A stretch of DNA of 36,583 nt from a virus (taxonomy: Duplodnaviria > Heunggongvirae > Uroviricota > Caudoviricetes), in the IMG/VR virus record IMGVR_UViG_2585427727_000016. One strand, written 5' to 3'. A program made the position numbers and the translations under genes. The notes under the pieces are model-generated. The model made no database searches. It was not told the DNA's origin and was given only the letters and a program-made list of their open reading frames with translations. Below are positions 10,318-31,578 of this stretch, in pieces (position 1 is the first letter of the stretch; every line of letters begins with the position of its first letter).

Positions 10318-10881
10318 ATGCTGAATAATAGAGATATGAATATTAATGAACTTAAAGACTGTATTCACTATGAAGTAATCGGTAGCGAGCGTCCTTTCTC
10401 CTGGCGAAAGGCAATTGTTCGCGCAATAAAACATAGAAGACTTCGTTATTTATTTTGGTGGCGCATAGCCAAATACCTTTTTGATAAAGGCGGATACTGT
10501 CGGAAGATTGCGGGGAAAATAGAACGTTTCATTCTTGATAAATATAATGTAACAGTCCCTTTAACTGTAAATATAGGGAAAGGTTTTGATATTTCTTATC
10601 TCAACAGTGTTGTTATCGGTCACAAAGTAACAATCGGTGAAAATTGTTCAATAAAACCGGGGGTAACTATTGGGCTACGTGGTGATTTTAATGATATGGA
10701 TATTGTTATAGGACATAATGTGACCATTGGTTGTAATGCCACCATTCTTGGTGGCAAAGTGCGTATAGGAAACAATGTCACAATAGGTGCTCATGCATTG
10801 GTATTGCATGATATTCCTGATGATTCAACATTCATCACTAAATTTCAGTCTGAAGTTATCTGCTCGTCCTCCCGCACATAA
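10318..10881 (+). CDS. hexapeptide-repeat (left-handed beta-helix) acyl/acetyltransferase; cargo at the Z/fun position
   Basis: repeated [LIV]-G-x-x-x-x hexapeptides ([21 protein letters not shown]...[34 protein letters not shown]); strongly AT-rich compared with flanking phage genes; start codon uncertain. Confidence 0.7.
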
Positions 10882-11462
10882 CCCTGATTCATCAGCTCTG
10901 GCCATACGATATCCGGAGCTGTACTGGTGTCAATTCTACTCACTAATACTCTGTATTTTCTCCAGGAATCCAGTTGTGAATTTTCCTCGTTTGTTGCTAT
11001 TTCAAGATTAACTGCATCCTGCAGGATTGCGATGTTATCTGTTGCCTCCTGGATCAACCTTGCCTTTTTCTCTTCCGCTTCCCGTATCCGAAACAGTTTT
11101 TCTGCTTCCTCATCCTTCACCCAGGATACGCCGTCCCACTTCTGATATTCCCCTGCTGGCGACAACCAGGTGACATTCTCTGGTAGCGGTCCGGGTTCAG
11201 AAATAAACAACGCGTCCCCCGATGCCACGTCATAGACCGTTTTACCACGATGGTCTTCAACAATATTCCACGATTCATTTTCACTGTTAAAAACTGCCAC
11301 AAAGCCAGCAGGAATTTCCGGTGGGGCGATATCTGTAGAATTAGCTGGCAGCCCTGTATGAGGTGGAATATATGCGTCACCTTCACCAATAAACTCATTA
11401 GTTCCGGCCAGCAGGTTATAAATTTTTACAGTGCGTGATTGTTCACTCATTCTGAATGCCAT
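10845..11462 (-). CDS. G: tail fibre assembly protein G
   Basis: 205 aa; start overlaps H stop (TAATG); P2 G-like. Confidence 0.85.
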
Positions 11463-13462
11463 TATGCAAGCCTCACAATATAATTAAATGCGATGTTTTT
11501 AACGGTGTTTTCCGCGTTACCAGCAGCGTTAACGGTGATGGTATGTCCATGTGAACCAATCGCAACAGAGTGCGTATGAGCGCCAATACCAACAGTGTGT
11601 GCATGTGCCCCAGCACTTGTAGCGGTGCCTGATACTGAGTGGGTATGTGCGCCAGAAGAAGGCACAGTTCCATTCCCTACCACCGTGCCACTTGATGCAC
11701 CATCCAGCCAGTCGAAATTCATACCGCCACTGTTTGGTCTCCTTAATGGCACGGTATGAGTATGTGCGCCAGCACTATTTGCAGTACCAGATACATTGTG
11801 GGTATGTGCACCTGTGTTATTCGTTGATTTAGTACCGTAATCAAACGAAGATGTGGTTTTCGTACCCAAATCCGTATTGGATGCGCTGGCGCTGTGGGTG
11901 TGCGATTTAATGCCATCCTGTTCCAGAGACAATACGTCCCGACCACTGGCGGGTTTGCCCTTGATTGTCCAGCCACGCATATCGGGGAGTACACCAGAGG
12001 GATAAGCTGCTGCAAGCAGGGGATAGGTTGTTTTATCAAAAGTCTGCCCCTGCATAACGGCATAGCCTGTAGGCACTGAATCAGAAGGCCACGGAATCGC
12101 CGCACCTACAGGAAATGAATCCTGCGGCGTCCATGCTGTCCAGTCACCCGTTGAGTACTGGCTGCGGGTATAGCTTCTGGATGTGTTATACACATAGTAA
12201 ATCTGTGTTATCCCGGCATTTTTAAGCACAACCAGTGTACCGGCAAGATTCTCTGGGTATTTCAGCGCTGCACTTGTATAGGCATTCAGGGGTTGATGGT
12301 ACAGCCCCGGCGTTTTGTAATTATCCAGATTCTGGTTTGCACCAATATTAATACTCTGACCGTTAAAAATATCCTGTGATGTAACATTGACATCATTGGT
12401 CAGTGGTTTGCCATTAACCTTACGTCCAGAGGGCACACGCCCGTTTGCATTGTCATTAGCAGCTTTAACCGCTTTCGGGGTCGCGGCAAGCGTTTCAGAC
12501 GTGCTGTTGGTCGCGTTGCTAAGCTGAACTATCCCTTTCTGTGCTGTCGTTGCATCCTGTGCGGTGTATTTCCCGTTAGCCAGCTCATACGCGGCCTTAA
12601 CGGCTTTTGGCGTTGCCGCCAGTGACTCGGAAGTGCTGTTAGTCGCACTGCTGAGCTGGATAAGACCTTTTCGCGCTGTGGTAGCGTCCTGTGCGGTATA
12701 TTTCCCGTTAGCAAGGTCATATGCTGCCTTTACCGCCTTTGGTGTTGCCGCCAGCGTTTCAGAATCGCTGTTGGTGGCGCTACTGAGCTGGACAAGGCCT
12801 TTTCGCGTTGTGCTGGCATCCTGCGCAGTATATTTCCCGTTAGCAAGGTCATACGCGGCCTTTACTGCTTTCGGCGTTGCAGCTTGTGTTTCAGACACGC
12901 TGTTAGTGGCGCTACTGAGTTGAACAAAGCCTTTTGCGGTCAGCGAGGCATCCGGGTGACGTCGTGACTGTTCATGCTCTTTCAGTTTGTTATCCACGTA
13001 ATCCACTGTGGCCATCACCATGGTGTTATCCACGGTAAGCGCCACAGTGGCAGTGCTGGATACGGTCAGAATGGTGCGAAATGTTTGTGCACGACCGGAC
13101 CCTTCGGCAACGGCTGGCTTGTAACTTTCGGCAGTATTGCCCACCGCGATTAAATCGCCGTGCTCATCAAACACACCAATTTCCCGGATCCAGAATCCGC
13201 CCGTTTCTGGAGGAATAACCAGCTCCGCAATAATGCGATTCTGATGTGTTGCGTCCAGGATGACGCGATTAACAGTATGTCGCCACACCTCATGCACCAG
13301 ACGGGTCTGCTTACTGTCTGGTGTGGGCAACGTGCCGCCACCGTCGCCCACGGCCATATGAGTCAGGCGGACAGGCTTACCATCTGGCGCGGCTGCCTGA
13401 GCTAATTTTTTTGCACCCGTATCGGTGATAACGGTTTTAAATTTTCGTGTTGTGGTACTCAT
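11462..13462 (-). CDS. H: tail fibre protein H
   Basis: 666 aa; conserved N-terminal region, four internal 44-aa tandem repeats, His-x-His-rich C-terminal tip. Confidence 0.9.
12430..12955. repeat. four tandem coding repeats of about 132 bp inside gene H
   Basis: DNA period visible by eye (GTATTTCCCGTTAGC...); protein repeat [38 protein letters not shown] x4. Confidence 0.8.
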
Positions 13463-13464
13463 GC

Positions 13465-13995
13465 TTAATCGCCTGGATAAATGGTGATAACTTCACCGTC
13501 ATAAGTTGCCGCCGCTGCGAAAATATCCCCCGGAATTTCCTGAATGATATTCAGCCCTGTCATGTGGCGGCTGACCGGGCGGGCATCAGCAATCAACCGC
13601 TCCATTTCCAGATACATTTCCTCCGTCACGCCACTGTCCAGCGTGCCGACTTCAACGGTAAATGTTCCCGGTTCTCCGCCGAATTCCCACCACTCAGACA
13701 CGCGAATGAGGTATCCCAGCGGCTCAATGGCCCGGCGCAGTGCGCTGATGGTCCCTTTGTGTCGGTGTATCAGCCATGCATCACGAATAACCTGTCGCTT
13801 TGTCTCTTCCGGCCAGTTGCGATCCCAGCGGTCAACGGAAAATGCCCAGGCGAGATAAGGCAGCAGGTGCACCGGGCAGGTGTCCGGGGACCACAGTGTG
13901 TTGAGGTCTACCGGGATGTCTGTAATGCGTGTTCCGACGGCTTCTGCACAACGCATGAAATTGCTGGCTGATGGGGGTAACAACGAATTACTCAT
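13465..13995 (-). CDS. I: baseplate assembly protein I
   Basis: about 176 aa from the Met with AAGGTGG RBS (ORF track extends to 14028); position between J and H. Confidence 0.8.
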
Positions 13996-14884
13996 TACGC
14001 CCACCTTCGCTGATGGTGAACGACTCACAGCGCGCCGCCTGTATGTCGCTGATGGCCATATTCTGTGTGGGTTCGATTATCTCCACGCGTTGCACACCGT
14101 GCACATGCAGTGCGGCAGCAATGGCGGACAACGCCACGTCCTGACCGATAAGCCCCTGCTCAGCCAGCCACTTCCTGAACGACGATTCCGCCGCAGCCAG
14201 AATAGGTTCGGATTCCGGGCCGGGGTAAAAGTACAGTTTTGCATTCAGCCGCCATGTCACGATTCTGGCACTCTGTACGGTCAGGCGGTCGGCCACCGGA
14301 CGGGTATCCTCTGCATTCAGAACGGCGCGAACGGTATTAAGCAACGCCTCCGTTGCTGTGCCGTCGCCTTCAGTGGACAGGATGGAAACCGTCACATTTG
14401 CCGGAGACGGGCTGATGGCCCGCGCATCACGCACCAGACCGCTGGCGCTGCGGGCAAAATACTCGTATGCACCTGACGGGCCAGCAACACTCAGGCCGTC
14501 GTACGCCCGCTGCGCCCGCAGTCTCAGTGAGGTGTCACTCTCCATCACCGCGTCGGTGGTATCCGTTGCCGGAGTGATGGTCAGGCGCTTTGTGTTCATA
14601 TTGCCCGCGAGGTTGTCCAGGTCTGTCCCGGCGCTGTGGCTTAACATGCAGGCGCGAGCCCCCTCATTGACCCGCTGGCGTAACAGCATTTCACGAAACG
14701 ACATGGTTTGAGCGATAACGTTAAGGGGTTCCGATTCCAGCTCCAGCGCGGCGGAAACGGCTTCACGCTGTTCGGCGGGATAAGCCGCAATCATCATGGC
14801 CTTTGTGTCAGCCAGAATTGCCTCAAAATCAGGCTCCGCGATGATGGCGGGTTCCGGTAACTGGGAAAGGTCAACAGCAGGCAT
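13988..14884 (-). CDS. J: baseplate assembly protein J
   Basis: 298 aa; follows W with a 3-nt gap; P2 J-like. Confidence 0.85.
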   Translation of the reverse strand: MPAVDLSQLPEPAIIAEPDFEAILADTKAMMIAAYPAEQREAVSAALELESEPLNVIAQTMSFREMLLRQRVNEGARACMLSHSAGTDLDNLAGNMNTKRLTITPATDTTDAVMESDTSLRLRAQRAYDGLSVAGPSGAYEYFARSASGLVRDARAISPSPANVTVSILSTEGDGTATEALLNTVRAVLNAEDTRPVADRLTVQSARIVTWRLNAKLYFYPGPESEPILAAAESSFRKWLAEQGLIGQDVALSAIAAALHVHGVQRVEIIEPTQNMAISDIQAARCESFTISEGGRNE

Positions 14885-25213: not shown

Positions 25214-25312
25214 AAAACAGCCTCCATTGATTTCTTTGCTCGTATTTTGCACTTATGAAGTGTGGTCGGCAAGGTGCCGCATCACTGACGCGCTTCGCTT
25301 GTCTGCTGCTTC

Positions 25313-25341
25313 GCCGGGGCATAAAAAATTTATGCCCCGGC
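25313..25341. promoter_or_regulatory. 29-bp near-perfect palindrome (candidate operator) about 100 bp upstream of the 174-aa gene
   Basis: GCCGGGGCATAAA-AAA-TTTATGCCCCGGC read directly. Confidence 0.4.
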
Positions 25342-25741
25342 TCTCCAGCTCCTGTATCAATCAGATAATTTCACGACGCCTTCCAGTTTATCGCCACCAT
25401 CGACGGTCAGACTCTTACGCAATCCCACTACGTTGACTGTATGTTCTCGCTGCCTCAGTGCGATTTTGACGGCCTTACCTTTCACCCCATCAAATCAAAA
25501 GCCCTCACGCCTTTTTCATGCTCAGCGTGAGAAATATGGCCATTCTGTTGTGTCTCTGCGACATCGTTCAGGGAATGCTATTTACCCCCTGAAACGCGGG
25601 CTGTTCCCCCGTCACCTGCGCGTAGAAAAAACGCGTTTTTTGTGCACGTACGGATCCTTGACGGATCCAGCCGCCACGCGGGCCGGAAGTACAAAAAGTC
25701 GTTCAAAAAAATTGTGCAAACTTGTGCACTATCGTGCAAAC

Positions 25742-25766
25742 AAAAAAAAGCGCCTTATCGGCGCTT
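25742..25766 (-). terminator. intrinsic terminator after the 89-aa gene
   Basis: minus-strand hairpin GCGCC-GATAA-GGCGC followed by a run of 8 U. Confidence 0.7.
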
Positions 25767-25774
25767 CAAAAATA

Positions 25775-26044
25775 TCAATTGTTGCTGTGTATTAATCGCC
25801 AACCACGAACATATGCTTCATAAGCATCTCTGTGCCTTACAGTTCCAGCCTGGCTAAACGGAATGTTAGCTAAAACTAAATCATTCTGAGCCATAGCGCG
25901 TCCTTCAAGCGCATCTTTTATGCCTAGCTCAAAAGCACAGGCAGCGCATTTGTGCCGACCTTCTTGTCCTTGATATTCAGGGAGAGACAGAAATGTTGGG
26001 TTATAACGATGAGGGTTCTTGCAAATACCTGTTTTAGCCCGCAC
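25775..26044 (-). CDS. hypothetical protein, hotspot cargo (89 aa, GTG start)
   Basis: ORF with GAGGT RBS before GTG at 26044 and its own terminator; single CAAC motif; function unknown. Confidence 0.45.
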   Translation of the reverse strand: MRAKTGICKNPHRYNPTFLSLPEYQGQEGRHKCAACAFELGIKDALEGRAMAQNDLVLANIPFSQAGTVRHRDAYEAYVRGWRLIHSNN

Positions 26045-26174
26045 TTTATTTACCTCATAGGAAAAATATGCGTGCCTTTACAGAGGTGCGTGTAAGCAAT
26101 AAAATATACGACGCACATTTTGATTTACTTCGGAAGGCACGCATATCAGGTTAAGTGAGTCCGACCGAGTTCTA

Positions 26175-26207
26175 CGCCCCAATAGTTGCTGCTATTGGGG
26201 CGTTTTG
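26175..26207 (+). terminator. strong plus-strand intrinsic terminator with no annotated plus-strand gene upstream
   Basis: 11-bp GC-rich stem CGCCCCAATAG-TTGCTG-CTATTGGGGCG followed by TTTT. Confidence 0.6.
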
Positions 26208-26408
26208 CATGGACAATGCCGCGCAATTATCTTGTCGCTCACAATGCGAACGATCTTACAAAAAGGCACATTACTGTCAAGATAATTGATCGTTTTAATC
26301 GATAGATAATAGACAATCTATTTGTTTAACAGATCGATTATTGAAGTAAGTGCGCCAAATGGAATGATACTGTTTCTATAAATGTGAGCATTTTTCGCGC
26401 AGATGCTT

Positions 26409-31261: not shown

Positions 31262-31578
31262 GTGGCCCCTTGTGTAGTAAGTTGCGAAAACTCACCATCC
31301 AGAGCTGCGAAACTGTGGGTGGCGAGACGTACGAGGTTCGCAGTACCGGCTACACAAGAACCCGGCCCGACCGAAGTCGGCCCCGTACGCCCCGCCATAA
31401 TTCTGACGCGAAAAAAACGTGGCAATACAGTACGCACAAAAAAACCGCTGGCGCGGTTGTGCGCTTGTGTAGTCAGCAGGCTGCGAAACCCGGCACCCGT
31501 TTTATGAGGTGCAGCGGAAATGTAACCTGACTGATTGCGGCATGGCAAGCGGTTTTTTTGTGTGTGCATAGTGGTTAC
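31262..31578. repeat. non-coding region with iteron-like direct and inverted repeats (CTTGTGTAG / CTGCGAAAC units)
   Basis: CTTGTGTAGTAAGTTGCGAAAAC, GCTGCGAAACTG, GTTCGCAGTACCGGCTACACAAG (inverted), GCTTGTGTAGTCAGCAGGCTGCGAAACC; ends with a hairpin plus T7 on the plus strand. Confidence 0.5.

Follow-up and report, generated by a model that had tools for sequence, protein, structure and literature searches.

The tail fibre gene analyzed here, which belongs to an intact P2-like E. coli prophage inserted between pdxB and flk, carries in its central part a tandem array of 132-bp units, and this array raises the questions of what it contributes to the fibre, whether the number of its units changes, and by which route and to what effect such changes would occur. 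A sequence-only reading of the window (the whole stretch of DNA that was analyzed, 36,583 nucleotides) had described four near-identical repeats at 12430-12955, each encoding 44 residues, and had suggested that slippage or recombination at these repeats changes the length of the fibre and that the array may collapse in assemblies.

In this work the array was characterized by repeat and domain searches, by a census of related proteins and viral loci, and by alignment of alleles that share the same backbone. From these analyses we consider it very probable that the array is a four-unit PF03406 shaft in a trimeric fibre, that the number of its units changes by in-register exchange, and that it marks the boundary of a distal module. 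The repeat itself is an ordinary PF03406 member, a catalogued family in a textbook gene, and the feature as such is already known; for unit-number variation in P2 H genes no report was found in the literature searched. The new detail is a clean natural allelic series that includes both reciprocal products of one unequal exchange.

The fibre gene and its surroundings

By its domains and gene order the gene is a tail fibre gene of the P2 gpH type (Table 1). The synteny is that of P2, with the gpJ and gpI genes upstream and the Tfa/gpG chaperone gene downstream, and the annotated record contains the full P2-like gene set; the start codon of the chaperone gene overlaps the stop codon of the fibre gene by 1 nt. 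P2 gpH is 72% identical to the first 377 aa of the window fibre, and in P2, gpI on the baseplate is the attachment partner of the gpH fibre homotrimer (bioRxiv 10.64898/2026.09.14.750843). The distal part includes a collar domain (PF07484, aa 453-500), and aa 447-666 align to residues 26-242 of 2XGF; over its final 220 residues the fibre is about 72% identical to the crystallised receptor-binding tip of T4 gp37, and the translation of this region contains six H-x-H motifs (H-T-H, H-A-H or H-G-H). Given its P2-type N-terminal domain and its gp37-like last 220 residues, the window fibre is therefore a P2-head/T4-tip mosaic. The protein is 100% identical to WP_032340906.1, a 'phage tail protein' of E. 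coli O166:H15 JNE21-003, and a 100% identical gene is also present in one further chromosome-level assembly.

Table 1. Features of the tail fibre locus, in window coordinates
Feature	Position	Strand	Evidence
Tail fibre gene, P2 gpH type, 666 aa plus stop	11462-13462	-	Pfam: PF12571, 4x PF03406, PF07484, PF03335
N-terminal baseplate-attachment domain, aa 1-170	12953-13462	-	PF12571 at aa 6-153, E 5.2e-54
Repeat unit 1 (u1, type A), aa 171-214	12821-12952	-	PF03406 match
Repeat unit 2 (u2, type B), aa 215-258	12689-12820	-	PF03406 match
Repeat unit 3 (u3, type C), aa 259-302	12557-12688	-	PF03406 match
Repeat unit 4 (u4), aa 303-346, head of D and tail of E	12425-12556	-	PF03406 match; alignment to L001 gene
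Deletion junction, 11-nt in-register identity ACCAACAGCAC common to parent units D and E	12501-12511	-	alignment, sequence read directly
Distal collar and receptor-binding tip, aa 447-666, T4 gp37-like, HxH motifs	11465-12124	-	phmmer vs PDB 2XGF, E 3e-81
Tail fibre assembly (chaperone) gene, Tfa type, downstream	10845-11462	-	PF02413 Caudo_TAP, E 1.6e-39; record annotation
gpI-type baseplate protein gene, directly upstream of fibre gene	13465-14028	-	PF09684 Tail_P2_I, E 1.2e-50

The tip is T4 gp37-like, yet the adjoining chaperone is of the lambda-Tfa/P2-gpG type (PF02413) and not of the gp38 type; by family assignment, tip and chaperone together are a cross-family mosaic. Convergent with the tfa gene, and overlapping its 3' end by 37 nt, lies a hexapeptide-repeat acetyltransferase gene (10318-10881, plus strand; 'serine acetyltransferase' or 'transferase' in RefSeq), behind the fibre genes, where P2 phages usually carry their cargo. 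A role in lysogenic conversion, through surface acetylation, is conceivable for it; a PADLOC scan of the neighbouring genes, this one included, gave no match.

Elsewhere in the window, about 1.15 kb without a convincing ORF (25253-26408) separates a portal-adjacent hypothetical gene of 187 aa from a parR/parM-like pair; in P2 this place is taken by the variable hotspot between gene A and Q. An Rfam scan of this gap (25.2-26.4 kb) returned nothing above threshold, and only a weak ctRNA/sar-like match at 26174-26203 (E 0.1). In the early prophage region Rfam identified a C4 antisense RNA (83 bits; 31315-31402, minus strand) and beside it the Hfq-binding sRNA isrK (65 bits; 31438-31512, minus strand).

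The units of the array

Tandem Repeats Finder reported a single array in the region of the gene, at 12463-12953, with a period of 132, 3.7 copies, 78% matches and a score of 511. On the minus strand the array is made of four 44-aa units (132 nt each), head-to-tail and in frame, at 12425-12952, that is, aa 171-346 of 666; the central location in the gene and the 44-aa unit agree with the earlier description, whose coordinates were right to within about 5 nt. In the last unit the consensus is kept for the first 33 residues only, and the sequence then passes into the next domain. PF03406 (Phage_fiber_2) is matched by four separate stretches (E 4.9e-79; 260.1 bits against a gathering cut-off of 22), which excludes a chance origin of the array; the four tandem 132-bp repeats within the tail fibre gene are real.

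The near identity attributed to the units did not hold. In pairwise comparison they are 63-81% identical at the nucleotide and 66-89% at the amino acid level, and the longest exact run common to any two of them is 26 nt. Each pair differs by 15-20 synonymous and 5-15 non-synonymous codon differences, and since the former exceed the latter, purifying selection on the minus-strand frame is indicated. The units of the window are old duplicates held similar at the protein level and do not stem from a recent amplification.

An antisense ORF of 119 aa within the array (12564-12923, plus strand) was considered as a gene and discarded, since it too is repetitive and the synonymous pattern favours the minus-strand frame. 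In all likelihood the repeated codons gave rise to it as a by-product.

Unit number and distal modules in related loci

Among the 120 best full-length homologues that made up the protein census, lengths of 578, 622, 666 and 710 aa form a ladder of 44-aa steps on a constant scaffold of 490 aa, and a second ladder (608, 652 and 696 aa) is found on another scaffold. When the N-domain by itself served as query, the protein hits were confined to short or 'partial' entries, apparently owing to a length limit on hits, and this search was not taken as a census. The IMG/VR census covered 80 loci encoding the N-domain, mostly at least 96% identical to that of the window. Their complete fibre ORFs carry 1 unit (7 loci), 2 (18), 3 (25), 4 (10), 5 (1), 7 (1) or 8 units (1); the comparison of repeat number among related prophages, which the sequence-only reading had proposed, gave in this way a range of 1-8 with a mode of 2-3, behind an N-domain at least 96% identical. 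In every locus with a closely related N-domain and an ORF read from its start, the first unit begins at residue 171; in loci of greater distance it begins a few residues before that. In one 8-unit array three units are 100% identical in their DNA, which denotes a recent expansion.

Behind the array, 22 types of distal module were distinguished in the IMG/VR loci, and at least 70 of these loci combine an N-domain at least 96% identical with differing distal parts. The number of units also differs within one distal type; fibres with the tip type of the window, for example, have 4 or 7 units. In megablast comparisons with E. coli genomes many blocks begin or end inside the array (gene nt 511-1038). 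On the query, blocks start at 525-544 and 803-805, and others stop at 867-869, 1009-1016 and 1052; the array is therefore a mosaic joint of the gene too. Among the matches are lambdoid stfR-type fibres, whose similarity to the window gene is confined to the stretch from the repeats onward.

It is quite possible, though we would stop short of calling it probable, that the array is mainly a conserved recombination linker that allows distal receptor-binding modules to be swapped, the change in copy number being a neutral by-product. The 22 distal types behind one nearly constant N-domain and array, the block ends and starts inside the array, the lambdoid fibres included, and the occurrence of one unit in phage Mu gpS all speak for such a role, whereas the purifying selection on the units at the protein level leaves a structural spacer role still compatible, and the observed range of unit number is bounded at 1-8, with its mode at 2-3.

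Two related loci show further arrangements downstream of the array. In E. coli E110019 (locus L002, 4824-5726) a gene for a 300-aa macro-domain protein is inserted between the fibre and tfa genes, an insertion that is also found in O55:H7 and O157:H7 (hits H94-H95). In E. coli 33E (locus L003, 5155-6876) a 3-unit array is followed by two tail-fibre assembly genes in opposite orientation and then by an inverted fibre C-terminal fragment that has no N-terminus, a layout that resembles an invertible host-range switch of the Mu G-segment type.

An allelic series on one backbone

The window gene was compared with a common E. coli allele of five units, ABCDE (WP_042064115.1, the same as P0121; loci L001 and L008), which is present on 308 contigs. 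Aligned with the gene of L001, the window gene shows 0 mismatches over 2001 nt and one in-frame gap of 132 nt, which can be placed anywhere within the 11-nt identity ACCAACAGCAC, located at the same offset in D and E. Because the gap falls in this D/E identity, unit 4 of the window is a hybrid with the head of D and the tail of E; and because the missing 132 nt copy nothing that is left in the window, ABCDE is the ancestral allele and that of the window its deletion derivative. The two O166:H15 strains have the prophage at one and the same site, with pdxB and flk on its sides, but the array counts 4 units in one strain and 5 in the other.

Five additional alleles are, at the nucleotide level, each an exact in-register deletion of ABCDE, and a 7-unit allele carries an exact tandem duplication (Table 2). 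In total, eight alleles (2, 3, 3, 4, 4, 4, 5 and 7 units) differ by whole units only; every junction was mapped, and all changes are multiples of 132 nt that keep the reading frame. For most unit pairs no in-register identity, or hardly any, is longer than the one that holds the junction. A tract of 81 nt is common to the B/C and D/E boundaries, and in terms of their sequences ABE and ABCDCDE are the reciprocal products expected of one unequal crossover at this tract.

Table 2. Alleles related to ABCDE by loss or gain of whole units
Allele	Locus / protein	Occurrence	Units	Change	Junction identity
ABCE	L005 / P0152	38 contigs	4	132 nt deleted	14 nt
A/B-CDE	L093 / P0160	1 contig	4	132 nt deleted	14 nt
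ADE	L094 / P0146	3 contigs	3	264 nt deleted	14 nt
ABE	L095 / P0199	8 contigs	3	264 nt deleted	81 nt
AE	L096 / P0214	1 contig	2	396 nt deleted	26 nt
ABCDCDE	L011	IMG/VR provirus	7	exact 264-nt tandem duplication; minus 264 nt = 5-unit gene exactly

The aligned alleles show that the units are modules that keep the frame and that are lost and gained, in register, by deletion and duplication. The proposal that slippage or recombination alters the copy number is in this way strongly supported, and an invariant number, the outcome that the sequence-only reading had set against its own proposal, does not apply: genes that are otherwise identical carry 2, 3, 4, 5 or 7 units. A phase-variable contingency locus of the simple-sequence kind was also considered and rejected, the units being 132 nt long and 63-81% identical and the changes being in frame.

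A second reading of this variation, which we regard as unlikely, is that the unit number is an adaptive tuning of length, by which the reach of the fibre would be set against the depth of the O-antigen or capsule in the manner of a contingency locus. At least 7 independent events on one otherwise identical backbone, the fact that every change is in frame, and the variation of unit number within a single distal-module type are in its favour; but neutral events would look alike, as would events in prophages that are past selection for infectivity, and with junction identities this short and units this diverged the rates would probably be far below those of classical phase-variable loci.

Reliability of the 4-unit assembly

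It is very unlikely that the assembler collapsed five true units and so produced the four of the window as an artefact. Within the allele family the exact identity between units is at most 26 nt, and for D and E the in-register identity is no longer than 11 nt. Identities of 11-26 nt are shorter than the k-mer sizes typical of short-read assemblers. The 4-unit allele of the window was recovered on 26 contigs of several origins and in a pair of chromosome-level assemblies, and the same O166:H15 set, within one data set, includes strains assembled with 4 or with 5 units at the same prophage site; in addition, a second and different 4-unit allele, ABCE, is found in four chromosome-level assemblies as well as in the contigs of Table 2.

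What can be said for the artefact is that related arrays do defeat assemblers, as in locus L092 of a draft genome, whose array of near-identical units is interrupted by a scaffold gap of 100 N, and that many N-domain database entries are 'partial' proteins that end within the array. The warning that such repeats may collapse in assemblies does not extend to the window allele, with its diverged units and recurrent recovery, but it is justified for relatives with near-identical units such as L092.

In L092 (2001-4538; GCA_050009615.1, JARLSK010000029.1) the fibre gene is cut in two by the gap, which leaves a 'partial' protein of 241 aa and a remainder of 571 aa. The 241-aa protein (P0009), which ends at the scaffold gap, represents a cluster of 499 sequences, and many entries named 'partial phage tail protein' probably arise from gaps in near-identical arrays.

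A model for the shaft and for the change in unit number

In each unit a Lys-Gly turn, which is conserved, is followed by a short hydrophobic beta-strand (L/I-V-Q-L-S-S), then by an S/T-rich loop (ATNSxSE) and by a helix capped by Thr-Pro; the crystallised repeats of T4 gp34 and gp12 show these elements in the same order. A G...beta...[ST]-P-helix motif is common to the unit and to the repeats of T4 gp34 (744-877), e.g. gp34 823-836, ATTAIRGFVKTSS. With hhalign the PF03406 units and the gp34 repeats were aligned in the expected register (P 4e-4, at a probability of only 34%); PF03406 gave no match to T4 gp34 and gp37 in a Pfam scan (gp34 at E up to 0.1), and when the array was searched against PDB sequences, Mu gpS was the sole match, gp34 and gp12 being absent even with E allowed up to 10. 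When aa 160-352 were modelled with AlphaFold2 as a monomer (alignment of 26 sequences), the model was unusable (pLDDT 42, pTM 0.16). A low-confidence monomer model would be expected when an intertwined trimer is modelled as a single chain.

In the structures of T4 gp34 and gp12, a Gly starts the strand and S/T-Pro caps the helix of an axial three-helix bundle (PMC5537660). In a published model P2 gpH is a homotrimer of 54 nm, and its 'two repeat domains' belong to the AlphaFold-derived class D19; T4 gp34-like fibres are placed in the same class, for which a resemblance to the T4 short tail fibre is stated (bioRxiv 10.64898/2026.09.14.750843). From the motif-level match to the T4 repeats and this published AlphaFold-based classification we infer a fold in which the three helices of the trimer would pack on the three-fold axis, analogous to the T4 gp34/gp12 repeats. 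One unit would be one bead of a rod, by the same analogy, and the unit count would set the length of the shaft. The array lies between the conserved N-terminal domain, which docks on gpI, and the distal collar with its T4-gp37-like tip.

With units of this kind, the misalignment of one unit on another would cause the loss or gain of whole multiples of 132 nt, and the product would stay in frame. The junction lengths, together with what is established on the rearrangement of tandem repeats in E. coli, suggest two routes: replication slippage or annealing may act at identities of 11-26 nt, and unequal homologous exchange may act at the 81-nt identity.

Comparison with known fibres

The closest known system is P2 gpH, which has the same PF12571 N-domain, gene order (J-I-H-G) and 44-aa unit, and which carries four units at the matching position (aa 168-343 in P2). 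In contrast to P2, whose own tip is P2 or Mu-like, the distal half of the window fibre is T4 gp37-like, and a deletion has made its unit 4 a hybrid of D and E. The 'mixed alpha-beta fibrous domain' of T4 gp34 and gp12 is similar in its unit of about 33-47 residues, its strand-starting Gly and its Ser/Thr-Pro helix N-cap (PMC5537660), but the sequence similarity is marginal and there is no Pfam cross-match. In Mu gpS (PDB 5YVQ, 8JU3, 9KI1) residues ~107-150 clearly match the unit once (E 1e-9); in this case the copy is single, and the N-terminal and distal domains differ from those of the window fibre. For the EPcl proteins, side tail fibres of EHEC prophages, it has been reported that the lengths of collagen-like and coiled-coil shafts vary in whole repeat periods, and some of these fibres have a PF03406 unit between collagen segments (PMC3368898); unlike the 44-residue unit of the window, the variable periods there are those of collagen (3 residues) and coiled coil (7 residues).

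Conclusions

The allelic series indicates that diverged in-frame repeats still recombine at identities of 11-81 nt. For annotators, it means that differences of 132 nt in the length of fibre genes are real and that arrays of near-identical units are often broken in draft assemblies. The alleles are also ready-made constructs with which a possible effect of shaft length on adsorption or host range could be sought, a matter that bears on engineered P2, tailocin and pyocin fibres. Whether the PF03406 array is an evolvable length ruler, with copy number a selected host-range determinant and not neutral drift, is a further step that at present we consider improbable; if true, a P2-like phage with a T4-type tip would retune its reach to hosts of differing O-antigen or capsule depth.
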